UHGV virus genome: UHGV-0174150
Source: a virus
Strand: one strand, 5' to 3'
DNA: 26,274 nucleotides
Below the pieces are notes generated by a model. It ran no database searches, was not told where the DNA came from, and was given only the letters and a program-made list of their open reading frames with translations. Below are positions 1 to 26,274 of this stretch, piece by piece. Position 1 is the stretch's first letter, and each line of letters starts with the position of its first letter. The position numbers were made by a program, and so were the translations under genes.

Positions 1-396
1 TTTCCTGAGAAAAGCGAAACAATTGAGCAGTATCTTGTAAAGGAACTTCATGGTGTTGATTTTGGATGGACGCCAATACAGTCCATACAAGAGTCTGTAT
101 ATCAGACATGTGTTGAGCCACTGATCTCTAATGGATTTATGGTTTCACGTATACATAAGATGAATGGTCAGCTAGGTTTTCCGCCAGATATGATTCCTAA
201 TGGTTTACTGCCGCTGCCGAGATTTAGTAATACAGAACATCGTATGCACGCAATAATTGATACAGATCATTATGTTGAAGGCAACATGTCAACTGATTTG
301 CAGTTAATTGAAAAACAGATTCTTTCGTTGCATAGTAAAGTTAAAGAAGCATTTGAAGGCATGGTTTCAGATTTTGCGCGTGCTATTTGGTACTGA
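1..396 (+). CDS. hypothetical protein, C-terminal part; 5' end outside window
   Basis: Frame 1 is open from nt 1 to TGA at 394-396; the ORF track reports only the 139-396 part from an internal ATG. AT-rich like the two downstream ORFs. No motif recognised. Confidence 0.45.
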   Translation, partial: FPEKSETIEQYLVKELHGVDFGWTPIQSIQESVYQTCVEPLISNGFMVSRIHKMNGQLGFPPDMIPNGLLPLPRFSNTEHRMHAIIDTDHYVEGNMSTDLQLIEKQILSLHSKVKEAFEGMVSDFARAIWY

Positions 397-415
397 AACT
401 ACGGGGGTGACTAAA

Positions 416-1078
416 ATGTATGCAATTCCTACTGGAAGCATAGGCTCTGTAGATCGGTATACTCCAGATTCGCAGTCAAGCTCATGTGTATCAGGTGTTG
501 TTGCTGTCGCCGCATCTTTACTATTAGTTGGTACGGGGGCTTCATACCCTGTAAATGCTTATAAGCAATGGCGTCAGTATGTTCAGCCAAGGGTTCAGTT
601 TGCATTTGATTCCATAGAGTCAACGTACACGCCTGCAATTTCTCCTGAGGTTGATGTCAGGAATGTTGCCCAACATTTGGCTAATATTCGAGAAGTGCTG
701 TCTCCATCAATGTCAGAACTGGCTAAGGATTTGGGGATAACTCGGCAGGCTCTCTATAAATGGTTGTCAGGGGAGAACCAGCCTGATGATGCTTCAAAAG
801 TCCAATTCATTACCAACCTCAGTAATGTTGCTGACTCTTTTTCCAAAGCTGGACTCAATGATGCGAAGCTATTGGTGAAAATGAAAGCATTCAATGGTAG
901 GTCATTGATGGACTTAATAAAAGAAGGTGAGGATTGGAACAAGCCAGTTCAGGTACTGATTGATGAAGCTAAAGCGATGAATGCAGCTGCTGAATCGACC
1001 AATTACTTAGCAAGCAAGGCGAAACCGACAGATGATTGGAAGTCATCTATTTCAATTCCTAGAACAGTAGAGGAATAA
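416..1078 (+). CDS. hypothetical protein with XRE/Cro-type helix-turn-helix motif
   Basis: ATG at 416 with GGGGGTGA Shine-Dalgarno at 403-410, 20 nt after the upstream stop. Segment SMSELAKDLGITRQALYKWLSGENQP looks like an HTH_3 motif. Gly/Ala-rich hydrophobic stretch near the N-terminus. AT-rich. Confidence 0.55.
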   Translation: MYAIPTGSIGSVDRYTPDSQSSSCVSGVVAVAASLLLVGTGASYPVNAYKQWRQYVQPRVQFAFDSIESTYTPAISPEVDVRNVAQHLANIREVLSPSMSELAKDLGITRQALYKWLSGENQPDDASKVQFITNLSNVADSFSKAGLNDAKLLVKMKAFNGRSLMDLIKEGEDWNKPVQVLIDEAKAMNAAAESTNYLASKAKPTDDWKSSISIPRTVEE

Positions 1079-1087
1079 ATCACATTT

Positions 1088-1936
1088 ATGTTGGTACGAG
1101 GAACATCATGGCGTCAGGGGCATGTTCTTAAACATGATGATGCCGTTTCACTTGGACTTCTGAAGCCTGATGAAACGAACCATAAAGTTGTAGTTATAAC
1201 GCATGATTGTGATTTACAGAGTAATTCTGAAAAAAACGTGGAACTGATGTTTGGCCCCTTGAAAAAGGGGTCAAGCAAGATGAAAAGAGCTAAGCATCCG
1301 AGAATCCTCGATCTATGCTTTGAAAACCCAGAAAGTGCTAAGAAGAACGCAGTAGAGCTTCGGCATGAAAGAAAAGTCATCATTTCTAAAGAAGCTTTCC
1401 GTTGTGAGGAAAACGATCCGGCATTCTCCATTAGCACAGAAGAGAAACAAGCTCTTAAGCAATGGTTAGCAGCTAAGTATGGTCGTCCAGCGTTTCCTAA
1501 CTCGTTTGAAGAGCGCTTGCGGGCTTACGACGAGGATAAAAAGTTTATTTTCGAAAAAGAAGTTGCGGACATTATCGCCACAAACGCAGAGCATTTGATC
1601 GGAGTTTTTTTCGATTTGGGCGAAGAAAGATTTAACGATCTTGAGGAAGGCATACCATATGAGCTTTCTATCAATGTTGTTTATGATGCAACTGAAGGTG
1701 GCCCCGATGCCAGAGGGGCGGCTGAACAAACCTGTTCTGATCTAAAGGCATTGTTTTATAAGTTTTATGGTGATCCAATCTTGGGACATTCAGAGCTTAT
1801 AGAATTGAATACGTGCATTGCTGTTGCCGATACTCATTTCTCCCTGTATGCATTGAGGCGGATGGATCAATGGAGGGTGGAATACATCAGCCTTGAAGAA
1901 GATTCATATGGCGATTTCATTGGTGCCGGTGTTTAA
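1088..1936 (+). CDS. hypothetical protein (282 aa), possible effector partner of the HTH protein
   Basis: ATG at 1088 with GAGGAA about 12 nt upstream, 9 nt after the previous stop (operon-like spacing). AT-rich. No Walker A, HEPN or PD-(D/E)xK motif recognisable by eye. Stop codon lies inside the 1930-1965 palindrome. Confidence 0.6.
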   Translation: MLVRGTSWRQGHVLKHDDAVSLGLLKPDETNHKVVVITHDCDLQSNSEKNVELMFGPLKKGSSKMKRAKHPRILDLCFENPESAKKNAVELRHERKVIISKEAFRCEENDPAFSISTEEKQALKQWLAAKYGRPAFPNSFEERLRAYDEDKKFIFEKEVADIIATNAEHLIGVFFDLGEERFNDLEEGIPYELSINVVYDATEGGPDARGAAEQTCSDLKALFYKFYGDPILGHSELIELNTCIAVADTHFSLYALRRMDQWRVEYISLEEDSYGDFIGAGV

Positions 1937-1973: not shown

Positions 1974-3008
1974 TCAAGCATCGCCTAATTTATATTCGTC
2001 AAAACGAATAATTTCGTCATTAAGCCATTCATTTAATTCCATTAATCTTTTTTGAAGTGGAATCAATTCATTACGAACGAATACTCGACTAGCTTTTTCC
2101 ACGTCTCCAAACCCACCAACGTTGCTCGGCATAATTCCCATCATCTGCGGTGGCACGCGGTGCGCTGCCATCATGTCATCGCGGCTAACGTTCTTGATGT
2201 TAAGAAACTCGTCTTTCGCCGCAACCTCTGATAACGGGATGATCTGGATGCCGTCCTTTTTGCCGTTGGGCGAATACATAAACAGGTTGCGGAAGTTACC
2301 CGGTCCTTTGGCGCTTTTCATTGCCTGACGGATATTGTTCACATCCTCCTGGTTCTGTGCTGCGTCGGTCATGTACATAATGAAACCTGCGTGGCTGCCG
2401 TTGATGTAATACTTCCGGCGAAACAGCGTTGCGGACTCGTTGAGCAGGGTTGACGGGATGGCGGAGAGATAGCCTGGCAGCCCGTAAATCTCCTGGTTAA
2501 TATCCGGCTCCAGCAGATGAAAGATGCTGCCCTGCGTAAATTCATAGGGCTGCGTGGTCATGCCATACTGCACAAACCAGTAGGTATCCAGGTCTAATCC
2601 ACGTCGGGTGTATTTTGCCAGGGCAGGCTCAAGGGCGATAACTTCACCGAATCGGTTCGTGCGTTTCTCCAGGTAGGCGTTACCAAATACCAGATAGTCC
2701 TGCACAAAACGCGAAAAAGCCTGCTGGCTGAGCAGCGGATGAGGGATATAGGTACTGGTCAGAATGTTGCACTTTACTGCAATCGGGGAACTGTGATGCA
2801 CGGCGGCGCGGAAGGTGCGCGCCAGTCCGTCAAAGCTGACGGGCGGCTCATACCAACGGTCCATCTGTACGCATTCCACATAGTCCAGCAGTTCACGGCG
2901 GTCCAGAACAGGAACGGGATCGCCGAAGCTGAATGCTTCGGCTGTAGTTTGACTTTTAAGCTGGATCTGTTTCGTCGCCGCAGCTCGGTTCTTCTTACTC
3001 TTTCCCAT
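1974..3008 (-). CDS. Q: portal protein (P2 Q-like)
   Basis: 344-aa ORF whose position and length match P2 gpQ. Start ATG overlaps the P stop (ATGA coupling); the ORF track extends 1 codon further to a TTG. Confidence 0.9.
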   Translation of the reverse strand: MGKSKKNRAAATKQIQLKSQTTAEAFSFGDPVPVLDRRELLDYVECVQMDRWYEPPVSFDGLARTFRAAVHHSSPIAVKCNILTSTYIPHPLLSQQAFSRFVQDYLVFGNAYLEKRTNRFGEVIALEPALAKYTRRGLDLDTYWFVQYGMTTQPYEFTQGSIFHLLEPDINQEIYGLPGYLSAIPSTLLNESATLFRRKYYINGSHAGFIMYMTDAAQNQEDVNNIRQAMKSAKGPGNFRNLFMYSPNGKKDGIQIIPLSEVAAKDEFLNIKNVSRDDMMAAHRVPPQMMGIMPSNVGGFGDVEKASRVFVRNELIPLQKRLMELNEWLNDEIIRFDEYKLGDA

Positions 3009-4774
3009 CAAAAAATCTCCACAATATTGCTGGTATTGGCGGATTCGCCCTGCAGCGGTTCGTTAAACAGTGCGTGCATCGTTGCCCATGCCAGATCGGC
3101 GTGGCTGGCTTCTTCGCTGCGGCTGGCTTCATAGGTCGGGCGGTTGCCACTGGCGGTGGTGGTGCGACGGATTGCCATAAATGACTGCGCAATGTCGGTA
3201 TGTCCGGCGTCAAACTCCAGACGGCGGTGGCTGATAATGTCGTAGGCCTTGAGTACCAGGGCGTTTTTAACGTTGGGGTTGTAGACAAACTCCCGGACGG
3301 CAGGAAAGAACGCTTTCACGTTCTCGTAAACCCCGTGACCAACGCCGGTTGAGTCGATGCCGATGTAGGTCACGTTGTACTGCTCGGTCAGTTTTTTGAT
3401 TGCGTCAGCCTGGGCGCGGAAGTCCATCCCGCGCCACTGGTGACGCTCAAGAATGCGAAACTTACCGCCCGGCACGGCTGGCGGTGCCACCACCACGCAT
3501 CCGGCGCTGTCGCCGTTCTGCGTACCTTTTGCCGGGTCATAACCGATCCACACTTCGCGCCAGCCAAACGGGCGCAGGGCCAGAGCATGAAAGTCGGTCC
3601 AGACTTCCCAGCTGTCCACCATGCACGCCTGCAGCTCGCTGAGCGGGAACACGGACGCGAGATCGTCCACGAACTCGCACATCAGCAGGTTCTGGTATTC
3701 GTCCGGGCTGTACTCCATGCGCAACTGGTCAAGGTCGAACAGGTTACAGCCGCCGCGCACCGCATCTTCCACGGTGACTATCTGGCGGTATTGCCCGTCT
3801 GCGCACAGCAGGCCGGGGGCCAGATTGCTATGGGACAGGTCGATGTCCACCTTGTCGGCTTTGTTGCGTCCACGGTTGAACAGTGCACCGGACCAGAACG
3901 GATAAGCACTGTGGGTCAGGCTGGATGGCGTGGAAAAATAGGTTTGTCGCCATTTTTTGTGAATAGCCATACCGGAAGCCACTTTGCGCAGCTCCTGGAA
4001 TTTCGGTATCCAGAAATATTCATCCAGATACAGGTTGCCGTGGTAACTCTGGGTCGTGCCGCCAATGGTCTCGAGGAAGTATAGAGTGGCCCCCTAGGGA
4101 AGCTACATCGGTGCGCCTTTCAGCTCCACCTCCACTTCTTTGGCGAAGTCGATGATGTACTGTTTAAAGACGTGGGCCTGTGCCTTACTGGCGGAAAGGA
4201 AAATCTGGTTACGTCCGGTAAGCAGGGCGTCAATCAGGGCTTCACGGGCAAAGTAAAAGGTCGCGCCGATCTGGCGTGACTTCAGCAGGTTGCGGATGCG
4301 GTTGGCTTTTCCGGCTTCCCTCCAGTGGCGCTGGTAGTTGAACATGGAGGAATGGAAGATTTCTTCCAGCTTCTCAATCTGCTCATCGGTGAAAACATTC
4401 TTTTCCGGCTGACGGCGCGGGCCTTTGTTGCGGTTGGCGACGTTAGGGTTTAAGTCGGCTTCGTTGCCGCCATTGTTAAACTTGCTGATCCGCGCGTGGC
4501 GCTCCGACTGGCGCGCCAGCAGGTCAATCTCTTTGAAATCTTTCCCTTCTTTGTGCTCCTTCATAATGAGCTGGCAGTAGCGTGCGGCGGTGGTGAGCTG
4601 CATCTGATCCAGCGGCCCATAGTCACCCCACTTGTCGCGTTTTTTCCAGCTGTGAACGGTTGCAACTTTCTCGCCCAGCATTTCAGCAATGCGGGCTACG
4701 CGGTATCCCTGAAAGTACAGCAGCATGGCCTGCCGACGGGGATCGAGATCTGCGGGTGTCAGTGTGGTGTTCAT
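3008..4774 (-). pseudogene. P: terminase large subunit (P2 P-like), single frame interrupted by two in-frame TAG codons at 4103-4105 and 4094-4096
   Basis: ORFs 4103-4774 (N-terminal part) and 3008-3982 (C-terminal part) are in the same frame. Reading through gives ...KGAPM*LP*GATLYFLETIGG... with no other stop; total 589 codons, about P2 gpP size. Neighbouring residues align to P2 P as recalled from memory. Confidence 0.85.
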
Positions 4775-5766: not shown

Positions 5767-6825
5767 ATGAAAAAGAATACCCGCTTTGCTTTTAACGCTT
5801 ACCTGCAGCAACTGGCGCGTCTGAACGGTGTGGCAGTTGAAGAACTGTCCAGCAAATTCACTGTGGAGCCGTCTGTGCAGCAGACGCTGGAAGACCAGAT
5901 CCAGCAGTCCGCCGCTTTCCTGACGCTGATTAACGTCACGCCAGTGACTGAGCAGTCCGGTCAGCTGCTGGGGCTGGGTGTTGGCAGCACCATTGCCGGA
6001 ACCACTGATACCACCGCGAAAGAGCGTGAACCTGTCGATCCGACGCTGATGGTCGATGTGGAATATAAATGCGAGCAGACCAACTTTGACACGGTGCTGA
6101 CCTACGCGAAGCTGGACCTGTGGGCGAAGTTTCAGGATTTCCAGGGGCGGATCCGTGACGCCATCGTGAAACGTCAGGCACTGGACCGCATCATGATCGG
6201 CTTATACGGCCGGACGCTTTCGAAAACCTCCAACCGTAGTGAAAACCCGCTGCTGCAGGATGTGAACAAAGGCTGGCTGCAGAAAATCCGTGAGGATGCA
6301 CCGGATCACGTCATGGGCAGCACCACCACGGGCGGCGAAACCACACCGGGTGCGGTGAAAGTCGGGAAAGGTGGCGAATATGCCAACCTGGACGCTGTGG
6401 TGATGGATGCGGTCAATGAGCTTATCGACGTGGTCTACCAGGACGATGACGATCTGGTGGTGATTTGCGGGCGTGAACTGCTGTCTGACAAGTATTTCCC
6501 GCTGGTCAACAAAGAGCAGGAAAACAGTGAAAAACTGGCTGCCGATATGATCATCAGTCAGAAACGCATGGGTGGCCTGCAGGCGGTGCGTGCGCCGTTC
6601 TTCCCGCCGAATGCGCTGCTGATCACCCGTCTGGATAACCTGTCCATCTACTGGCAGGAAGATACCCGCCGCCGTTCAGTTATCGACAACCCGAAACGTG
6701 ACCGGATTGAAAATTTTGAATCCGTTAACGAAGCCTATGTGGTTGAGGACTATCGCTGCGCTGCACTGGTGGAAAACATCCAGATTGGTGATTTCAGCGC
6801 CGCCGCAGCCGAAACCGGAGCGTAA
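5767..6825 (+). CDS. N: major capsid protein (P2 N-like)
   Basis: 352 aa, immediately after O; size and position match P2 gpN. Confidence 0.9.
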   Translation: MKKNTRFAFNAYLQQLARLNGVAVEELSSKFTVEPSVQQTLEDQIQQSAAFLTLINVTPVTEQSGQLLGLGVGSTIAGTTDTTAKEREPVDPTLMVDVEYKCEQTNFDTVLTYAKLDLWAKFQDFQGRIRDAIVKRQALDRIMIGLYGRTLSKTSNRSENPLLQDVNKGWLQKIREDAPDHVMGSTTTGGETTPGAVKVGKGGEYANLDAVVMDAVNELIDVVYQDDDDLVVICGRELLSDKYFPLVNKEQENSEKLAADMIISQKRMGGLQAVRAPFFPPNALLITRLDNLSIYWQEDTRRRSVIDNPKRDRIENFESVNEAYVVEDYRCAALVENIQIGDFSAAAAETGA

Positions 6826-8955: not shown

Positions 8956-9333
8956 ATGAAAAAGAAATTAATCAGCGGACTGTTTCTGATGTTATGGATG
9001 GCGCTGTTAATCGCAGCAATGGTGTATCCGCAGGGGATCTTTCCGGTACTGGCAGCGTCCGGCGTTTGGGTAGCCTGTTTGCTGACATGGGCGGTAATTC
9101 CGGTAGCACTGGCTGCGTTAATTCAGAATGGCCCGCTCTGGCCCGAGTTCAGGGCATCTTTGCTCAAGACAATTCCCCGAAATCACAACGTATTTATCAG
9201 TTGGCTCCTGCGATTGCTGATTGTTGTAAGTCTCGCATGGACGGGGTGGGCTATTACCCTGGTCTTTTATCTACTGACCGTTATTGCCTTCTGGATCACC
9301 CGTAATCAGATGGCGCAACAGGTAGCAGCATGA
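8956..9333 (+). CDS. lysA: LysA-like lysis-timing membrane protein
   Basis: ATG at 8956 right after the endolysin stop; about 125 aa with multiple TMDs; P2 lysA position. Confidence 0.65.
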   Translation: MKKKLISGLFLMLWMALLIAAMVYPQGIFPVLAASGVWVACLLTWAVIPVALAALIQNGPLWPEFRASLLKTIPRNHNVFISWLLRLLIVVSLAWTGWAITLVFYLLTVIAFWITRNQMAQQVAA

Positions 9334-13220: not shown

Positions 13221-15580
13221 GCACAAAATTTTATACCCTGCTGACGGATATTGGCGCGGCGAAACTTGCCAGCGCCGCCGCGATCGGTGTGCCGCTAAAA
13301 ATTACCCATATGGCGGTGGGCGATGGCGGCGGAGCATTGCCGACGCCGGACGCAAAGCAGACGGCACTGGTAAATGAGAAACGCCGGGCTGCGCTGAATA
13401 TGCTCTATATCGACCCGCAGAACAGCAGCCAGATTATTGCTGAACAGGTGATCCCTGAAAATGAGGGTGGTTGGTGGATACGTGAAGTGGGTCTGTTTGA
13501 TGAGTCCGGGGCATTGATTGCCGTGGGCAACTGCCCGGAAAGCTATAAGCCGCAACTGGCTGAAGGCAGCGGGCGTACCCAGACCGTGCGCATGGTGCTG
13601 ATTACCAGCAGCACGGACAATATCACCCTGAAAATCGACCCTGCTGTAGTGCTGGCAACCCGCAAGTATGTGGATGACAAGGCACTGGAGCTGAAGGTGT
13701 ACGTGGATGACCTGATGGCAAAACATCTTGCCGCGCCGGACCCGCATTCACAGTATGCACCCAAAGAAAGTCCAACGTTTACCGGAACCCCCAAAGCGCC
13801 AACGCCAGCGGCGGGGAATAATACCACGCAGCTTGCGACCACCGCGTTTGTACAGGCGGCACTGACGGCCCTTATTAATGGTGCGCCAGCCACGCTGGAC
13901 ACGCTGAAAGAAATAGCCGCAGCCATTAACAATGATCCGAATTTCAGTACCACCATTAACAATGTGCTGGCACTAAAAGCACCGTTGTCGAGTCCGGCAC
14001 TCACCGGAACGCCAACAGCCCCCACGGCGGCACAGTCGGTCAACAATACACAGATTGCCACTACGGCTTTTGTGAAATCGGCGATTGCGGCAATGGTGGG
14101 TTCTGCACCTGCGGCACTGGATACACTGAACGAACTGGCGGCGGCGCTGGGGAATGACCCGAACTTTGCCACGACAATGCTTAATGCACTGGCAGGTAAA
14201 CAACCGCTGGACAATACGCTGACTAATTTGAGTGGAAAGGATGTAGCTGGTCTTCTCGCATACCTTGGTATTTCAGCGCCAGGCGGCGCAGGGTCAGTTG
14301 GATATAAATTAAATGCAGAGAATACAGTCTCACGAACTGCATACGATAATTTTTCTGACCGAATTAATGCCGGAGACTTTGGTATTAAGGGTGATGGGAT
14401 AGCTGATAATGCTGCTGCGATAACCAAGGCATGTGCTGCATTGCAGAAACTGTACGAAATTGATGGAATCCGTCGCACATTGGTATTTACAGATGGGTCA
14501 TATCGCACATCGGCCACAATTGTTGTTCATGCAAATATGCTTATTCATTGCGAGGGGGGGGTTGTATTCCAGAATATCGGGGCAGTAAAAACCTTTGCAG
14601 CGGTGGAGCTTCAGGGCGGATCCAAGAAAAGCGTACTCGGCACTATGGACGGGTACGGTAGCGCCATCCTCATCAGGGGTAGCACTCATACTGTCGAATT
14701 TCAGACAATCAGTAACTGCGTAGATGGGGTGATTTTCAGGGCTGACAACAACTGGGCATCCACGAAAAGCAGCCTGGATAATGTGGTTCGTGGTGTTCAA
14801 ATTGGCAAATGTACTAACGCTATCGTGTTTGAGCAGAACGCTAATAATCTTGTGCAACAGGGCAATGAAGTTCGTGTCAACTTTGTGTCTGAAACCCCTA
14901 ACACACTGCTTTTCAGAAACTTCGATGGATTTGTCCACACAGAGGAATCTAACTGGGATAGTAACTTCGTAGAGCTGATAGCGAGTGACCCAATAACGCT
15001 GCCAGATTCATCTATGGCTAGGAACTCTACCCCCCATAGCGTATCAAACCTGACAATGGCGGTTAAATCATGGTGCGGAGGTTGGGTGCCCGATGCAGGC
15101 TCCATGTGCCTGATTAGAGGTGCGTTCAGTACCAGTACGTTCGAGTTCAATCTGGCCCAACGAGTAGGCTTAAACGAGGTTGTGGATGCCGTCGGCGTTA
15201 ATTCATTTGGTTCGTGTATTTTACGAAATACTCGTTATGAGAATTTAGGTAATTCAATATCTTATATCGGCGTTACTACTGGCGCTGAGTTCAATAGTGG
15301 TTTAGCCCTTTTCCGTAGTAAGTTCCGAGTCAGATTTACCGTGGTACCTCTGGCCGCAGGCCAAACGTACGGACTGTCTTTTAAGCATGTGCTGAGCCAG
15401 CGCTCAAATACAGGCAGGATGCGGATCGTACAATACTCGGATACAGCCAGGGGCAAGCTCTTGATTGAGGTTCGTGATGCGGGTACTGAGACGCAGGGCC
15501 TGGTGCGGGTGTGGTTCACAAATTTAACTCAGACAACTACGTCCACAATGGACGTAGAAATTATTTTTGAAGCTGAATAA
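13217..15580 (+). CDS. H: tail fibre / tailspike, mosaic: P2 H-like N-terminal half joined to an AT-rich C-terminal module with a pectate-lyase-superfamily-like motif
   Basis: N-terminal roughly 335 aa match P2 gpH including the NSPALTGTP...NDPNFATTM...AGKQP repeat region. After about nt 14220 composition turns AT-rich and the protein carries DFGIKGDGIADNAAAI, like the start of beta-helix depolymerase tailspikes. Confidence 0.85.
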   Translation: MSTKFYTLLTDIGAAKLASAAAIGVPLKITHMAVGDGGGALPTPDAKQTALVNEKRRAALNMLYIDPQNSSQIIAEQVIPENEGGWWIREVGLFDESGALIAVGNCPESYKPQLAEGSGRTQTVRMVLITSSTDNITLKIDPAVVLATRKYVDDKALELKVYVDDLMAKHLAAPDPHSQYAPKESPTFTGTPKAPTPAAGNNTTQLATTAFVQAALTALINGAPATLDTLKEIAAAINNDPNFSTTINNVLALKAPLSSPALTGTPTAPTAAQSVNNTQIATTAFVKSAIAAMVGSAPAALDTLNELAAALGNDPNFATTMLNALAGKQPLDNTLTNLSGKDVAGLLAYLGISAPGGAGSVGYKLNAENTVSRTAYDNFSDRINAGDFGIKGDGIADNAAAITKACAALQKLYEIDGIRRTLVFTDGSYRTSATIVVHANMLIHCEGGVVFQNIGAVKTFAAVELQGGSKKSVLGTMDGYGSAILIRGSTHTVEFQTISNCVDGVIFRADNNWASTKSSLDNVVRGVQIGKCTNAIVFEQNANNLVQQGNEVRVNFVSETPNTLLFRNFDGFVHTEESNWDSNFVELIASDPITLPDSSMARNSTPHSVSNLTMAVKSWCGGWVPDAGSMCLIRGAFSTSTFEFNLAQRVGLNEVVDAVGVNSFGSCILRNTRYENLGNSISYIGVTTGAEFNSGLALFRSKFRVRFTVVPLAAGQTYGLSFKHVLSQRSNTGRMRIVQYSDTARGKLLIEVRDAGTETQGLVRVWFTNLTQTTTSTMDVEIIFEAE
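13769..14215 (+). repeat. two tandem ~74-codon tail-fibre repeat units inside H
   Basis: SPTFTGTPKAPT...NDPNFSTTINNVLALKAPL directly followed by SPALTGTPTAPT...NDPNFATTMLNALAGKQPL; unit boundaries approximate. Confidence 0.55.
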
Positions 15581-15589
15581 GGGTCACCA

Positions 15590-15817
15590 ATGACACTGGA
15601 AGAATTAAAAGCCGACAAAGCTGAAACACTGGCAAAAGCGAATGCATTGACATCATACATTCAGTCAGATGATTTTCATCTGGCTGGGCATAGCCCAGCT
15701 GAGCAGCATTACATGAAAAAGCGGGAGGCGGCATTGCTGGAATATCATATGCAACTGACCCACCAAATCGCAGTGATTGAAAACCCATCCGGCGTGCCAC
15801 TCACTCTCACTGAATAA
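15590..15817 (+). CDS. hypothetical small protein (75 aa) at the position of the P2 tail-fibre assembly gene G; possibly a chaperone remnant
   Basis: Starts 9 nt after the H stop; AT-rich; much shorter than P2 G (about 175 aa); only vague resemblance to Tfa C-termini. Confidence 0.4.
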   Translation: MTLEELKADKAETLAKANALTSYIQSDDFHLAGHSPAEQHYMKKREAALLEYHMQLTHQIAVIENPSGVPLTLTE

Positions 15818-15863
15818 TGTGCGAACATTCGACCATTAATGGAACCTAACGGAGAAGTTTAAC

Positions 15864-16163
15864 GTGGATATATCCCCATTTCTTCATACTTGTGCCGCTG
15901 TACTTATCCAAGCGTTTTTTGGTTACTTTTTTGGTAGGTGGGGGTATGGCGGCATTATTGGCTGCGTGTGGTTTATTGCTCGTGAACAAACGCAGGCTGA
16001 ATATCGATGGATAGCCGAGTTCGGCCACGGAAAGCGGATCAACATGCCGTGGTGGGGAGGTTTCGATATCAGGGTGTGGAATGTTGGAAGCATGCTTGAT
16101 TTCCTGGTGCCGGTAATAGTCTGTTCCCTGGTGTATGCCTGCGTGGTGTATCGGCAGGCATAG
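15864..16163 (+). CDS. hypothetical Trp/Gly-rich small membrane protein (99 aa)
   Basis: GTG start with GGAGAAG 6 nt upstream; hydrophobic N- and C-terminal segments. A 126-codon antisense ORF (15846-16226) overlaps it fully and I judge that one less likely. Confidence 0.4.
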   Translation: MDISPFLHTCAAVLIQAFFGYFFGRWGYGGIIGCVWFIAREQTQAEYRWIAEFGHGKRINMPWWGGFDIRVWNVGSMLDFLVPVIVCSLVYACVVYRQA

Positions 16164-16247
16164 CGTCATGATAATCACCAATCGAACGTTTAAGAAAATG
16201 AAGAGATAACGGCTAACTGGCATCATTTCCGGTTTCTATTCAGGGGG

Positions 16248-16820
16248 ATGATCATGCTTATTGGATATGTACGCGTGTCAACAAATGACCAGAACACCGA
16301 TTTGCAACGCAATGCGCTGAACTGCGCGGGATGTGAGCGGATTTTTGAGGATAAAATCAGTGGCACTAAGTCCGACAGACCGGGGCTGAAAAAACTGCTC
16401 AGGACACTATCGGCAGGAGACACGCTGGTTGTCTGGAAGCTGGACAGGTTGGGGCGCAGTATGCGGCATCTTGTTACGCTGATAGAGGAGTTGCGCCAGC
16501 GTGGTGTGAATTTCCGAAGCCTGACTGACAGTATTGATACCAGTACCCCAATGGGCCGTTTCTTTTTTCATGTCATGGGTGCCCTGGCTGAAATGGAACG
16601 CGAACTGATAGTTGAACGTACCAGGGCAGGGCTGGCTGCAGCTCGTGCCAAAGGCAGAGTAGGTGGACGCCGTCCTAAGTTGACCACCGAACAGTGGGCA
16701 CAGATTGGGCGTTTACTCGAGGCCGGAGAATCAAGACAGCGTATTGCACTGATTTTTGATGTGGGTGTTTCCACAATTTATAGAAAATTTCCGGCAAATA
16801 AGAGTAATGAATCCCCCTGA
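16248..16820 (+). CDS. serine recombinase, Hin/Gin/Pin/Cin-family DNA invertase
   Basis: N-terminal LIGYVRVSTNDQ..DLQ catalytic motif, VVWKLDRLGRS, MGRFFFHVMGALAEMERELIVERT, and C-terminal HTH (GVSTIYRKF). Probable true start is the ATG at 16254 (MLIGY). Confidence 0.9.
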   Translation: MIMLIGYVRVSTNDQNTDLQRNALNCAGCERIFEDKISGTKSDRPGLKKLLRTLSAGDTLVVWKLDRLGRSMRHLVTLIEELRQRGVNFRSLTDSIDTSTPMGRFFFHVMGALAEMERELIVERTRAGLAAARAKGRVGGRRPKLTTEQWAQIGRLLEAGESRQRIALIFDVGVSTIYRKFPANKSNESP

Positions 16821-19017: not shown

Positions 19018-19151
19018 CGGTTGACGATCTGGTGGCAGATATCGCCACCATTTTTCACTGGCCGCCATCCGTTACTGACGTTATGCCGCTGACCGAAGTG
19101 CTGGAATGGCGGTATAAAGCGATTCAGAGAAGCGGGGCCAACGATGAGTGA
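18715..19151 (+). CDS. E+E': E+E' fusion produced by programmed -1 frameshift at TTTTTTG (18972-18978)
   Basis: The -1 frame after the slippery site is open to TGA at 19149-19151, encoding ...VDDLVADIATIFHWPPS...SGANDE and overlapping the T start. Same arrangement as P2 E/E' and lambda G/GT. Confidence 0.6.
18972..18978 (+). other. slippery heptanucleotide T_TTT_TTG, -1 ribosomal frameshift site for E+E'
   Basis: Read directly in the E frame as ACT TTT TTG. Confidence 0.6.
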
Positions 19152-22100
19152 TAACAACCTGCGTCTGCAGGTCATTCTTAATGCGGTTGACAAGCTCACC
19201 CGCCCATTTCGATCTGCGCAGGCCAGTTCAAGAGAACTGGCTGCTGCTGTCAAAAAATCCCGCGATGCAATAAAGCAGCTTGATCAGGCCGGGAGCAGTC
19301 TGGACAGCTTCCGAAAGCTGCAGGCAGAAAATCAGAAATTAGGCGACAGGCTGAACTATGCCCGCCAGCGTGCAAATTTGCTCAGTCAGGAACTGGGAGC
19401 GATGGGGCCGCCTTCGCAACGTCAGGTTGTTGCTCTGGGCCGTCAACGGCTGGCTGTTCAGCGCCTGGAAGAACGCCAGAAAAAGCTGCAGCAGCAGACG
19501 GCGCTTGTGCGTGCTGAACTGTACCGGGCGGGAATTTCTGCGAAAGACGATGCGGGAGCAACTGCCCGTTTAGCCCGTGAAACATCACGTTATAACCAGG
19601 AACTTTCGAAACAGGAGGCGCGGCTGAAGCGACTGGGGGAAGCTCAGCGCAGGATGAATGCAGCGCGTGTCAGTTATGCCCGTTCGCTGGAGGTGCGTGA
19701 TCGTATTGCAGGTGCCGGAGCCACCACCACGGCTGCAGGGCTGGCAATGGGCGCACCAGTGATGGCGGCAGTAAAAAGCTATACCAGCATGGAAGATGCC
19801 ATGAAAGGTGTGGCAAAGCAGGTCAATGGTCTGCGTGACGATAATGGCAACCGCACTGCACGTTTTTATGAAATGCAGGATGCCATCAAGGCTGCCAGCG
19901 AACAGTTGCCGATGGAAAACGGTGCGGTGGATTTCGCTGCACTGGTTGAAGGTGGTGCGCGCATGAACGTCGCAAACCCTGACGACAGTTGGGAAGATCA
20001 GAAACGTGACCTGCTGGCCTTCGCCAGTACGGCAGCAAAGGCGGCAACAGCCTTTGAGCTGCCAGCGGATGAACTGTCAGAAAGTCTGGGGAAAATCGCC
20101 CAGCTCTACAAAATCCCCACCCGCAATATTGAACAGCTCGGTGATGCGCTGAACTATCTGGATGATAACGCCATGTCGAAAGGGGCAGACATCATTGATG
20201 TGATGCAACGTCTGGGCGGTGTGGCTGACCGTCTGGATTATCGTAAAGCGGCGGCGCTGGGTTCCACCTTCCTGACACTGGGCGCTGCGCCAGAGGTTGC
20301 AGCCAGTGCAGCAAACGCGATGGTGCGTGAATTGTCCATTGCCACCATGCAAAGCAAAAGTTTCTTTGAAGGGATGAATCTGCTGAAACTCAATCCTGAA
20401 GTGATTGAAAAGCAGATGACGAAGGATGCGATGGGAACCATCCAGCGCGTGCTGGAGAAGGTAAACGCGCTGCCGCAGGACAAGCGCCTGTCTGCCATGA
20501 CTATGTTGTTTGGTAAAGAGTTTGGCGATGACGCGGCGAAACTGGCAAACAACCTGCCGGAACTGCAGCGTCAGTTAAAACTGACAGCGGGCAATGATGC
20601 GCTCGGCTCCATGCAGAAAGAATCCGACATTAACAAGGATTCACTTTCTGCGCAGTGGTTGCTGGTCAAAACCGGAGCGCAGAACACCTTCAGCAGCCTG
20701 GGCGAAACGCTGCGCCAGCCGCTGATGGATATTCTGTACACGGTGAAAAGCGTCACGGGGGCGTTGCGTCGCTGGGTGGAAGCTAACCCGGAACTGACAG
20801 GCACACTGATGAAAGCATCGGCTGTTGTGGCTGCGGTTACCGTCGGCCTCGGCACCTTAGCGGTGGCGCTGGCTGCAGTGCTGGGGCCGCTGGCAGTGAT
20901 CCGTCTGGGATTCTCTGTGTTGGGTATCAAAACGTTATCTTCCGTTACGGCAGCAGTAACTCGAACCAGCAGCGCGTTGTCCTGGCTGGCTGGCGCGCCA
21001 CTGGCACTGCTGCGACGCGGGCTTGCTTCATCGGGCAACGCCGCAGGTTTACTTACTGCGCCGTTGTCGTCATAGCGCCGCACGGCATCACTCACGGGAA
21101 ATGTCCTGAAAACTCTAGCAGGAGCGCCGGTTGCACTTTTGCGGTCTGGATTATCCGGTTTACGTGCTGTTGCTGTGATGTTTATGAATCCTCTGGCGAT
21201 GCTGCGCGTTGCCCTGTATGCCATATCTGGTCTGTTAGGTGCTCTGCTCAGTCCGATAGGTCTTGTGGTTACTGCACTGGCGGGCGTGGCGCTGGTTGTC
21301 TGGAAATACTGGCAACCCATCACCGCATTTCTCGGTGGCGTGGTGGAAGGATTCAAAGCGGCGGCAGGTCCCATCAGTGCAGCGTTCGAACCGCTTAAGC
21401 CCGTGTTCCAGTGGATTGGCGACAAAGTGCAGGCGCTGTGGGGCTGGTTTACTGATCTGCTGACGCCCGTTAAGTCGACCTCTGCCGAACTGCAGAGCGC
21501 AGCGGCCATGGGGCGACGATTCGGGGAGGCACTGGCAGAAGGGCTGAATATGGTCATGCATCCGCTGGACTCCCTGAAATCCGGCGTTTCCTGGTTGCTG
21601 GAGAAACTCGGCATTGTCAGTAAAGAGGCTGCAAAGGCGAAACTGCCGGAAAGCGTGACGCGTCAGCAACCTGCGACGGTGAATGCAGACGGTAAAGTGA
21701 TGATGCCATCGGGTGGTTTTCCGTCATGGGGATATGGCTTTGCGGGGATGTATGACAGCGGCGGCTATATCCCGCGCGGGCAGTTCGGCATTGTCGGTGA
21801 AAACGGGCCGGAAATTGTCAACGGTCCGGCAAACGTGACCAGCCGGAGAAATACCGCTGCACTGGCTGCGGTTGTCGCCGGAATGATGGGAGTTGCTGCC
21901 GCGCCAGCAGAGCTTCCACCGTTGCATCCTTTGGCGCTTCCCGCGAAAGGCGGTGAAGCGATGGTGAGTCGCGTAGCTGCTGTGCCGCCCGTTCACCGGA
22001 TTGAGGCACCGACGCAGATCATCATCCAGACGCAGCCAGGACAAAGTGCGCAGGATATTGCGCGGGAGGTGGCACGCCAGCTTGATGAACGTGAACGCAG

Positions 22101-22155
22101 GCTGAAGGCAAAAGCCAGGAGTAACTACAGCGATCAGGGGGGATACGACGCATGA
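19144..22155 (+). pseudogene. T: tail tape-measure protein (P2 T-like), single frame interrupted by one in-frame TAG at 21073-21075
   Basis: ORFs 19144-21075 and 21139-22155 are in the same frame; the 63 nt between them are open, so the only interruption is the TAG. Read-through gives ...LLTAPLSS*RRTASLTGNVLKTLAGAPVALL..., continuous Ala/Leu-rich tape-measure sequence. Confidence 0.85.
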
Positions 22156-24278: not shown

Positions 24279-25964
24279 TTATCCTAATCCTGGCCATACC
24301 ATGACGATGATTGTCCCTGCCAGCGTCAGCAGGACGTTGGCGATTGCATAGGTGCCCGCATAGCCCAGCGCCGGGATGTTACTGCGAGCTGTATCACTGA
24401 TGATCTCCATTGCCGGCGCGCAGGTACGTGCGCCCATCATTGCGCCGAACAACAGCGCGCGGTTCATTCGCAATACATAAGCACCGAACAAGAAACAGAT
24501 AACCACGGGCACCAGACTGACAATCAATCCGGCAATCAACATCTGACCGCCAATCGCGCCCAGGCCGTTATTAATACCGCTACCGGCGCTCAGACCAACG
24601 CCTGCCATAAACACCATCAAGCCGAACTCTTTCACCATGCTTAATGCACCCTGCGGAATGTAACCGAAGGTCGGGTGGTTAGCACGCATAAAGCCCAGCA
24701 TAATTCCGGCGAATAACAACCCGGCAGCGTTCCCCATGCCGAAACTGAATGTGCTGAACTGGAAGGTGATCATCCCGATCATCAGCCCAATAACAAAGAA
24801 GGCGCAGAATGCCAGCAGGTCAGTGACCTGGCTGTGAATCGAGATAAAGCCGATGCGATCGGCGATGGTTTTTACGCGGCGGGCATCGCCGCTGACTTGT
24901 AAAACGTCACCTTTGTTAAGCACGACGTTGTCATCTATCGGCATCTCAATCTGGCTACGAATGACGCGGTTAAGGAAGCAACCGTGATCGGTCAACTTCA
25001 GTTGTGCGAGACGTTTACCTACAGCGTTATGGTTTTTAACGACCACTTCTTCAGTGACGATACGCATGTCGAGAAGGTCACGATCGAAAACTTCTTTACC
25101 GTTACGGAAGCTGGGATCGAGTCGGGCATGGGCGTCGGGATAGCCTACCAACGCTATTTCATCGCCCATTTGTAGCACGGCATCACCGTCTGGATTTGCC
25201 AGAATCCCGTTACGTCGAATACGTTCAATGTAGCAGCCGGTTTGTCGATAAATACCCAGTTCACGCAGATTTTTGCCGTCGGTCCAGGCCACCAGTTCCG
25301 GGCCGACGCGATAGGCGCGGATCACCGGTAAATAAACCTTACGGTTGGCATCAGTGTCCAGGCCACGTTCGCGGGCGATTTGCTGGGCGCTGGTCTGTAA
25401 GTCCTGATGCTGCAATTTCGGCAAGTAACGCGCACCAACAATCAAACTCACCAGACCGATTAAATAGGTTAAGGCATACCCGAGGCTCAGATTATCCAGT
25501 GCCAGTGAGAGCTGCCTGCTTTCCATGCCGGAATGACGCAGTGTATCGCCAGCACCGACCAGAACCGGTGTCGACGTCATAGAGCCTGCTAACATACCGG
25601 CCGTCAGGCCAATATCCCAGCCAAACAGCTTACCTAACCCTAAGGCGATCACCAGCGCACTGCTAACCATCACCAGTGCTAGCATTAGGTAATTTTTCCC
25701 ATCGCGAAAAAAAATGGAAAAAAAGTTCGGTCCGGCTTCGACCCCGACGCAGAAAATAAACAGCATAAAGCCAAGATTAAGCGCATCGGTGTTAATGCTG
25801 AAATCTTGTTGGCCTAATAACAGCGATACGACTAAAACGCCAATGGAATTACCCAGTTGGATCGAACCAAGTCGTAACTTTCCGAGACATAGCCCAAGCG
25901 CGAGGACCACAAATAATAACAGAATGTAATTCCCATTTAACAATTCGGCGACGTTTATATTCAC
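24279..25964 (-). CDS. ybjL: AAE-family putative transporter (YbjL/YidE-like), host chromosomal gene
   Basis: 561-aa multi-TMD protein with a central soluble region; I recognise it as enterobacterial YbjL from memory, not from a search. GC and codon usage host-like. Confidence 0.85.
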
Positions 25965-26233
25965 GGAGGCTAACTTCTTGTTTACTAGTAAGCTGTTGAA
26001 AGAAATGGTAATTTACGATAATGTTTTTTACCAGAATTCAGGGCGCAGATTCATTCAGCGCACCTAAACGATAGTAAAGTAACAATATATTTTACTAGTG
26101 TAATCACATTAGGTATCAACGGCTATATGAATTGCGTTGGCCTATATTAGCATGGAATGCGAAGCGGCTTTATCTTACTGAACGCCACACTGGCGAAAAA
26201 TGTGTGCGATAGACGCAGTGTCAGGAGGAACGA

Positions 26234-26274
26234 GTGAAACATAACCAACGTTGGGCGGGGGCAATCTGGTGGTT
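26234..26274 (+). CDS. ybjM: start of a host gene, probably ybjM (inner membrane protein); 3' end outside window
   Basis: GTG at 26234 with AGGAGG 5 nt upstream; encodes VKHNQRWAGAIWW..., resembling the YbjM N-terminus as I recall it; divergent from ybjL. Confidence 0.4.
   Translation, partial: MKHNQRWAGAIWW

Follow-up and report, generated by a model that had tools for sequence, protein, structure and literature searches.

The terminase gene and its prophage setting

The window (the whole stretch of DNA that was analysed, 26,274 nucleotides) carries a terminase large subunit gene that is full length and contains two amber codons close to each other.

3008-4774, minus strand: gene of the terminase large subunit, homologous to P2 gpP; at 1767 nt it has its full length and is interrupted by two TAG codons
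4103-4105, minus strand: amber codon 1, TAG in place of GTG/ATG (Val/Met), two base changes
4094-4096, minus strand: amber codon 2, TAG in place of AAC (Asn), two base changes

Read on the minus strand, 3008-4774 translates as a single frame of 589 codons, in which internal stops occur at two positions only, codons 224 and 227 (...ELKGAPM*LP*GATLYF..., asterisks marking the stops), and the uninterrupted frame of gpP is lacking. A first-pass annotation of this DNA had described a single terminase frame broken only by these two TAG codons, on which translation, the list of open reading frames and direct reading of the sequence agree. Gene callers split the gene into two parts (4103-4774, 223 aa, and 3008-3982, 324 aa), and the Pfam families Terminase_5, Terminase_6N and Terminase_6C match the two fragments. 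The plus strand over the ambers reads CCCTAGGGAAGCTA, with CTA at 4103-4105 and 4094-4096 and CTAG at 4094-4097. It contains the CCTAGG palindrome that had been noticed there before, and the change at amber codon 2 gives rise to the CCCTAGGG palindrome.

Homology to the gpP family extends over the full length of the gene. Its DNA is 97.1% identical to that of Escherichia phage Cartapus over 1767 nt and 96.5% identical to that of Klebsiella phage 4LV2017 at equal length (1767 nt), in both cases ungapped, and in a MAFFT protein alignment the terminase also aligned with those of P2, phiCTX and HP1. Both sides of the interruption took part in the latter alignment, which bears out the terminase identity and the flanking similarity to P2 gpP that had been claimed before. 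The strings KSRQIGAT and LYLDE, which we take to be the Walker A and Walker B ATPase motifs, respectively, are present and aligned. Because the gene has the same length as the intact homologues and aligns with them without gaps, the stops are substitutions at sense positions, as had been supposed; the equal-length, ungapped alignment to Cartapus and 4LV2017 rules out an insertion or frameshift. Alignment to intact P2-like terminases, a check that had been proposed, identified the ancestral codons as GTG/ATG and AAC. The first site is occupied by Ile/Val in P2, phiCTX and HP1, and the Asn at the second is invariant out to the same three phages.

The window represents a P2-like (Peduoviridae) prophage integrated beside ybjL/ybjM of Escherichia coli, with a host flank of ordinary E. 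coli sequence. The prophage gene order is canonical: Q and P are divergent from O-N-M-L-X-holin-lysozyme-lysA-lysB/C-R-S-V-W-J-I-H, followed by FI-FII-E-T-U-D-ogr. When 32 reference genes were compared, 29 matched the window, and 27 of these 29 were intact, many with a protein 100% identical to that of relatives. According to the gene index, the source contig is ENA ERZ1304577, NODE_2056_length_26274_cov_5.301118. This name is SPAdes-style and gives a k-mer coverage of 5.3; the window is thus a short-read metagenome contig of very low depth. A literature search with the assembly accession found no paper.

Clusters of private substitutions

We compared the window with six relatives and defined as private each substitution that differs from all six. 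The two ambers turned out to lie in a cluster where private differences are packed more densely than anywhere else in the window, and several further clusters of the same kind were found beyond the two ambers described earlier.

4054-4113: terminase patch, 60 bp, 14-15 private substitutions, of which 12-13 are transversions (against six relatives)
6204-6220: capsid patch, in gpN (major capsid gene); its 17 bp contain 7 private differences, all transversions
9143-9208: lysA patch, 11 private transversions in 66 bp
21072-21123: tape-measure patch, within gene T (19144-22152); the 5 private differences are transversions, each either T>A or G>C
26206-26272: contig-end cluster, in chromosomal DNA of E. 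coli (ybjL-ybjM region); the final 70 bp contain 4 private transversions

The terminase patch is located between the presumed Walker A and Walker B motifs. With a background rate of private differences of 0.72%, 0.43 private substitutions would be expected in 60 bp, compared to 14 observed (Poisson P = 6e-17). The patch turns GDPMVLPNGATLYFLGTNARTAQ into GAPM*LP*GATLYFLETIGGTTQ, that is, it introduces two stops and alters six other conserved residues (D>A, V/M>stop, N>stop, G>E, N>I, A>G, R>G, A>T). The earlier description of the ambers is accurate, but it left out that the stops are only two of about eight amino acid changes in a 60-bp cluster. The same patch generates an AvrII (CCTAGG) and an XhoI (CTCGAG) site.

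In the major capsid protein, FNGVKRA is turned into LYGRTLS without a stop (P = 7e-11 against the background). Ten of the 11 changes in the lysA patch are to C on the plus strand, corresponding to G on the minus strand (P = 4e-12 against the background). The tape-measure patch changes TTG (Leu) into a third in-frame TAG (21073-21075). Its density alone is not significant once all positions are allowed for; the case for this patch is made by the uniformity of its spectrum and by the fact that no relative shares it. In the contig-end cluster, three of the four transversions are to G, in a sequence that is otherwise identical across many diverse strains, K-12 included. The patches disregard gene boundaries, affecting terL, gpN, lysA, T and the host chromosome, and they are length-preserving, consist of substitutions only and are each shorter than a short read.

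Private differences within the four internal patches differ in character from those in the remainder of the window. Transitions and transversions amounted to 2:35 inside, compared to 113:48 outside (Fisher P = 1e-13), and 28 of 37 changes inside were non-synonymous, compared to 25 of 150 outside (Fisher P = 1.5e-11). Third codon positions accounted for 15/37 changes inside and for 123/150 outside; the patch changes are evenly distributed among codon positions, whereas those outside are mostly synonymous transitions. Purifying selection acts normally on the sequence between the patches, and neither in spectrum nor in distribution do the patches resemble natural variation. Such a contrast between inside and outside is not what prophage decay, a natural mutator or recombination with a divergent phage would produce.

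We also searched for the patch alleles elsewhere. With short, patch-centred queries against E. coli complete genomes, the best match to the terminase patch reached 96.8% over 401 bp, and the patch is therefore missing from all 1192 E. coli records. The best matches to the other internal patches were 95.0% over 161 bp among 975 records (capsid), 93.6% over 171 bp among 683 records (lysA) and 96.9% over 161 bp among 924 records (tape measure), the last corresponding to exactly the five patch mismatches. In all four cases, the shortfall from 100% is about the number of patch mismatches, and patch alleles are absent from all 683-1192 E. coli prophage copies. The private alleles at the contig end were found in none of 5420 E. 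coli genomes (best match 99.6%).

Beyond E. coli, the best record in a phage collection matched 85.4% over 96 bp around the terminase patch, a 63-mer from this patch was not found in GTDB representative genomes, and a 23-mer spanning both ambers was not found in IMG/VR or JGI metagenome contigs. More than 1000 homologue copies in E. coli records were without TAG at the amber sites. The gene index lists the capsid protein in its altered form, as well as both terminase fragments, for a single contig. The independent recurrence that would mark a genuine amber or pseudogene was not found.

Origin of the amber codons

From these data we conclude that the two terminase ambers are very probably base-calling errors that were kept in a low-coverage metagenome contig, and not mutations of the prophage. 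The window shows what is expected of sequencing-error patches: low depth, private and substitution-only clusters on the scale of a read, indifference to gene boundaries and a cluster at the contig end. The checks proposed in the first-pass annotation (suppressor tRNA, induction defect) had implied genuine nonsense mutations. This part of the interpretation is not supported: the contig, with its 5.3x coverage, has at least five such patches, and the transversion-dominated one that contains the ambers is absent from all other sequences searched and has a spectrum unlike that of natural variation. The indirect evidence points to assembly error, which the annotation itself had named as the outcome that speaks against its reading.

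We propose the following course of events. A rough Poisson argument suggests that, at 5.3x, a few stretches of a 26-kb contig would be spanned by a single read. The true sequence may thus have been without a good read at a few places, where the assembler would have retained the path of one poor-quality read, because the assembly graph held no competing path. Patches of 17-66 bp with about 10-40% of positions substituted and no indels would result. One of them would have fallen in the terminase gene and produced two TAG codons by chance, and another a TAG in the tape-measure gene; at the contig end, the tail of a single read may define the sequence. What the data show is the patches, their spectrum, their absence elsewhere and the low coverage value in the contig name; the single-read origin of the patches is our inference.

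The spectrum of the changes is consistent with a particular chemistry. In two-colour sequencing by synthesis, C and T are marked by one label each (a different one), A by both, and G stays unlabelled (PMC11140927). One wrong channel can therefore lead only to the exchanges A<>T, C<>G, A<>C and G<>T, and two wrong channels are required for a transition, so that single-channel miscalls account for 35 of the 37 patch changes. The almost purely transversional spectrum thus fits single-channel miscalls of two-colour chemistry, with the type of instrument deduced from the spectrum itself. All five changes in the tape-measure patch share the same channel and direction, 10 of the 11 in the lysA patch are signal losses if the read lay on the minus strand, and all four in the contig-end cluster are signal losses on the plus strand. 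In the terminase and capsid patches, the channel directions are mixed. The verdict of an artefact is independent of the two-colour inference.

Some observations speak against an artefact. All three in-frame stops are TAG, and the terminase and capsid patches are without one uniform channel direction. Two stops in one patch are also fairly unlikely under random error: when we simulated 14 random transversions in the 60 bp of ancestral sequence, one or more in-frame stops were obtained in 25% of cases and two or more in 2.3%. The two stops are therefore unusual, yet unremarkable, because the finding was picked for having stops. Over all patches, new TAG/CTA trinucleotides were not significantly enriched (P = 0.05). 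We rejected the creation of TAG/CTAG as a hint of design or recoding on the same value, chance stops being plausible. CTAG is rare in the window (9 sites, compared to 50 expected), and three of the nine sites arise from private changes (4094, 21115 and 25679); the appearance of such sites in DNA that avoids CTAG is the behaviour of unselected errors. Further, the gene index entry for the contig reads 'samples_with_this_contig: 2', which would favour a real sequence if it meant two independent assemblies. It is more likely that one analysis was linked to two sample records.

Real mutations, by which localized hypermutation (error-prone patch synthesis in repair or recombination, or a host or phage mutator) hit several tracts of 20-60 bp and disabled terminase and tape measure, are improbable. 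The changes are present in the deposited sequence, the patches are discrete and length-preserving, and three stops, all TAG, are somewhat more than expected from random transversions. However, to our knowledge no bacterial process replaces 10-40% of the bases in a tract of tens of nucleotides, about 95% of them by transversion, and the same signature recurs in host chromosomal DNA exactly at the end of a contig of 5.3x coverage. No other genome or contig searched has even part of a patch, normal purifying selection prevails between the patches, and neither a local donor nor a palindrome-perfecting pattern was found. If the patches were real after all, they would point to a localized mutator, against strong contrary evidence. 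We consider it very improbable that a process not yet recognised writes dense, near-purely transversional, length-preserving tracts of 17-66 bp into a P2-like prophage and the adjoining chromosome, thereby inactivates packaging and tail genes, and spares the rest.

An assembly chimera, in which coverage gaps were bridged by reads of a divergent P2-like phage from the same metagenome, is extremely improbable. Several related Peduoviridae often share a metagenome, an E. coli genome can hold up to 3 copies of the terminase gene, and low coverage favours bridging. A working donor gene would, however, have neither in-frame stops nor changes at residues invariant to P2, phiCTX and HP1, and natural divergence would bring many transitions and third-position changes, in contrast to what the patches show. 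The patch strings are also in no phage, E. coli genome, GTDB representative, IMG/VR or JGI contig searched. For gene conversion from a divergent homologue, which we likewise rejected, no carrier was found in GTDB representatives, IMG/VR, JGI metagenomes, the phage collection or E. coli genomes.

Two other local mechanisms were considered and rejected. In the case of a diversity-generating retroelement, the changed ancestral bases include all four nucleotides and are not adenine-specific, an 11-mer search of the window revealed no repeat copy of the patches, and there is no reverse transcriptase among the 29 reference genes matching the window. For a quasi-palindrome template switch or a local donor, no derived 11-mer occurs elsewhere in the window. 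The folding energies changed from ancestral to patch sequence from -21.6 to -25.3 (terminase), -6.8 to -7.1 (capsid), -22.6 to -20.4 (lysA) and -22.3 to -20.2 (tape measure); these changes are inconsistent in direction and therefore do not indicate a template switch.

The chance that the ambers are read through by a host suppressor tRNA or a reassigned TAG, with terminase still being made, is practically negligible, even though all three in-frame stops are TAG. The three TAGs stand for different amino acids (Val/Met, Asn and Leu), and no single suppressor would therefore restore the protein, of which the terminase patch destroys six other conserved residues as well. Neither one consistent amino acid nor a matching tRNA was found, the ARAGORN scan for tRNA genes covering the window, where there are none. 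The homologue copies without TAG at these sites and the ordinary E. coli flank also argue against readthrough. That a laboratory strain in the sample carried a deliberate knockout, with stops and AvrII and XhoI markers set by oligonucleotide recombineering, is scarcely conceivable: the terminase patch does create both sites and its 60-bp span would suit a 90-nt oligonucleotide, but the capsid, lysA, tape-measure and contig-end patches are without design logic, most patches make no stop and contain scattered missense changes, and the sequence derives from a metagenome.

The double-amber terminase is thus in all likelihood a sequencing or assembly artefact and not a real feature, and no suppressor, recoding or genuine terminase knockout is needed to account for the ambers. 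Where a low-coverage metagenome contig shows nonsense codons, a "split" terminase or an odd cluster of missense changes, caution is called for, as read errors can be the cause. Such errors would spread to protein databases; the capsid protein in its altered form and the terminase fragments of 223 aa and 324 aa already have index entries as unique proteins. Artefacts of this kind can be tested for without reads, by comparing private substitutions inside and outside clusters in their transition/transversion ratio, codon position and presence in relatives.

Comparison with known systems

In length (1767 nt) and ungapped DNA identity (96.5-97.1%), the gene resembles gpP of the P2-like phages (Cartapus, 4LV2017, P2), with which it also shares the divergent orientation of Q (portal) and P relative to O-N-M-L and the Walker A (KSRQIGAT) and Walker B (LYLDE) strings. 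What sets it apart from other gpP copies is a pair of in-frame TAGs together with six missense changes, all within codons 219-241. The TAGs at codons 224 and 227 are most likely artefacts.

An in-frame TAG in an essential morphogenesis gene is reminiscent of the classical phage amber mutants. A classical phage amber results from one change, as a rule a transition (CAG or TGG to TAG, for example), whereas each terminase TAG needs two transversion-type changes and lies amid at least 10 further private changes. Decaying prophages accumulate scattered mutations and indels; the remainder of this prophage, in contrast, is intact.

Compared to read errors as they are usually retained, the error density is high for survival in a consensus, and the terminase and capsid patches mix channel directions. 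In the other respects compared, the patches are like uncorrected read errors in low-coverage contigs of the metaSPAdes type, with 5.3x coverage, substitutions only, patches shorter than a read and a cluster at the contig end. They also resemble a two-colour error spectrum, with many contig-end changes to G (dark-channel calls) and almost no transitions.

Private substitutions beyond the terminase amber codons

The tape-measure gene carries a third in-frame TAG, and further clusters of substitutions private to this contig, i.e., present in none of the compared relatives, lie in two other phage genes and at the chromosomal end.

21073-21075, plus strand: third in-frame TAG, within tape-measure gene T (19144-22152)
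6204-6220: private transversion-only patch in the capsid gene (gpN)
9143-9208: private transversion-only patch in lysA
26206-26272: four transversions within the contig's final 70 bp (ybjL-ybjM, conserved E. coli chromosomal DNA)

The TAG splits gene T, where it replaces a TTG (Leu) codon, and stems from a patch of five changes (21072-21123; T>A and G>C only). This patch has the same signature of base-calling error in a low-coverage metagenome contig as the two amber codons of the terminase gene. The capsid patch converts FNGVKRA to LYGRTLS, while the lysA patch introduces eight missense changes into LysA, with 10 of its 11 base changes being to C on the plus strand; neither patch was found in any E. 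coli genome. Three of the four contig-end transversions are to G, and a further G>C change was observed at 25805, likewise in conserved chromosomal DNA of the ybjL-ybjM region. The E. coli genomes that match best share one sequence here and have none of these changes.

A lone private A>T transversion was additionally observed in the terminase gene at codon 152 (position 4321), replacing Trp with Arg (HWWEAG to HWREAG). This change may be genuine variation or one more isolated miscall in a read.

CTAG avoidance

The tetranucleotide CTAG occurs nine times in the whole window vs. about 50 expected from dinucleotide-preserving shuffles. This scarcity is the known enterobacterial avoidance of CTAG. 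Of these sites, the three at 4094, 21115 and 25679 arise from private changes.

Cargo genes and tail-fibre region

Three cargo genes (1-1936, plus strand) adjoin the portal gene, at the variable spot of P2-like prophages.

Gene 1, plus strand: 3' part only; TIGR04255 family by annotation in relatives
Gene 2, 416-1078, plus strand: HTH/XRE-type regulator (Pfam HTH_3)
Gene 3, 1088-1936, plus strand: 282-aa protein, no match in Pfam or PADLOC

The regulator gave weak RmrA-like matches in PADLOC, confined to its HTH region. Together these genes may form a defence or accessory module that is as yet uncharacterised. At this position, other relatives have either HNH and PIN genes or a reverse transcriptase.

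The tail-fibre C-terminal and assembly region (14270-16177) is colinear with none of the close relatives compared and adjoins a recombinase (invertase) gene (16254-16817). It appears to be the exchangeable or invertible host-range cassette typical of P2-like phages.
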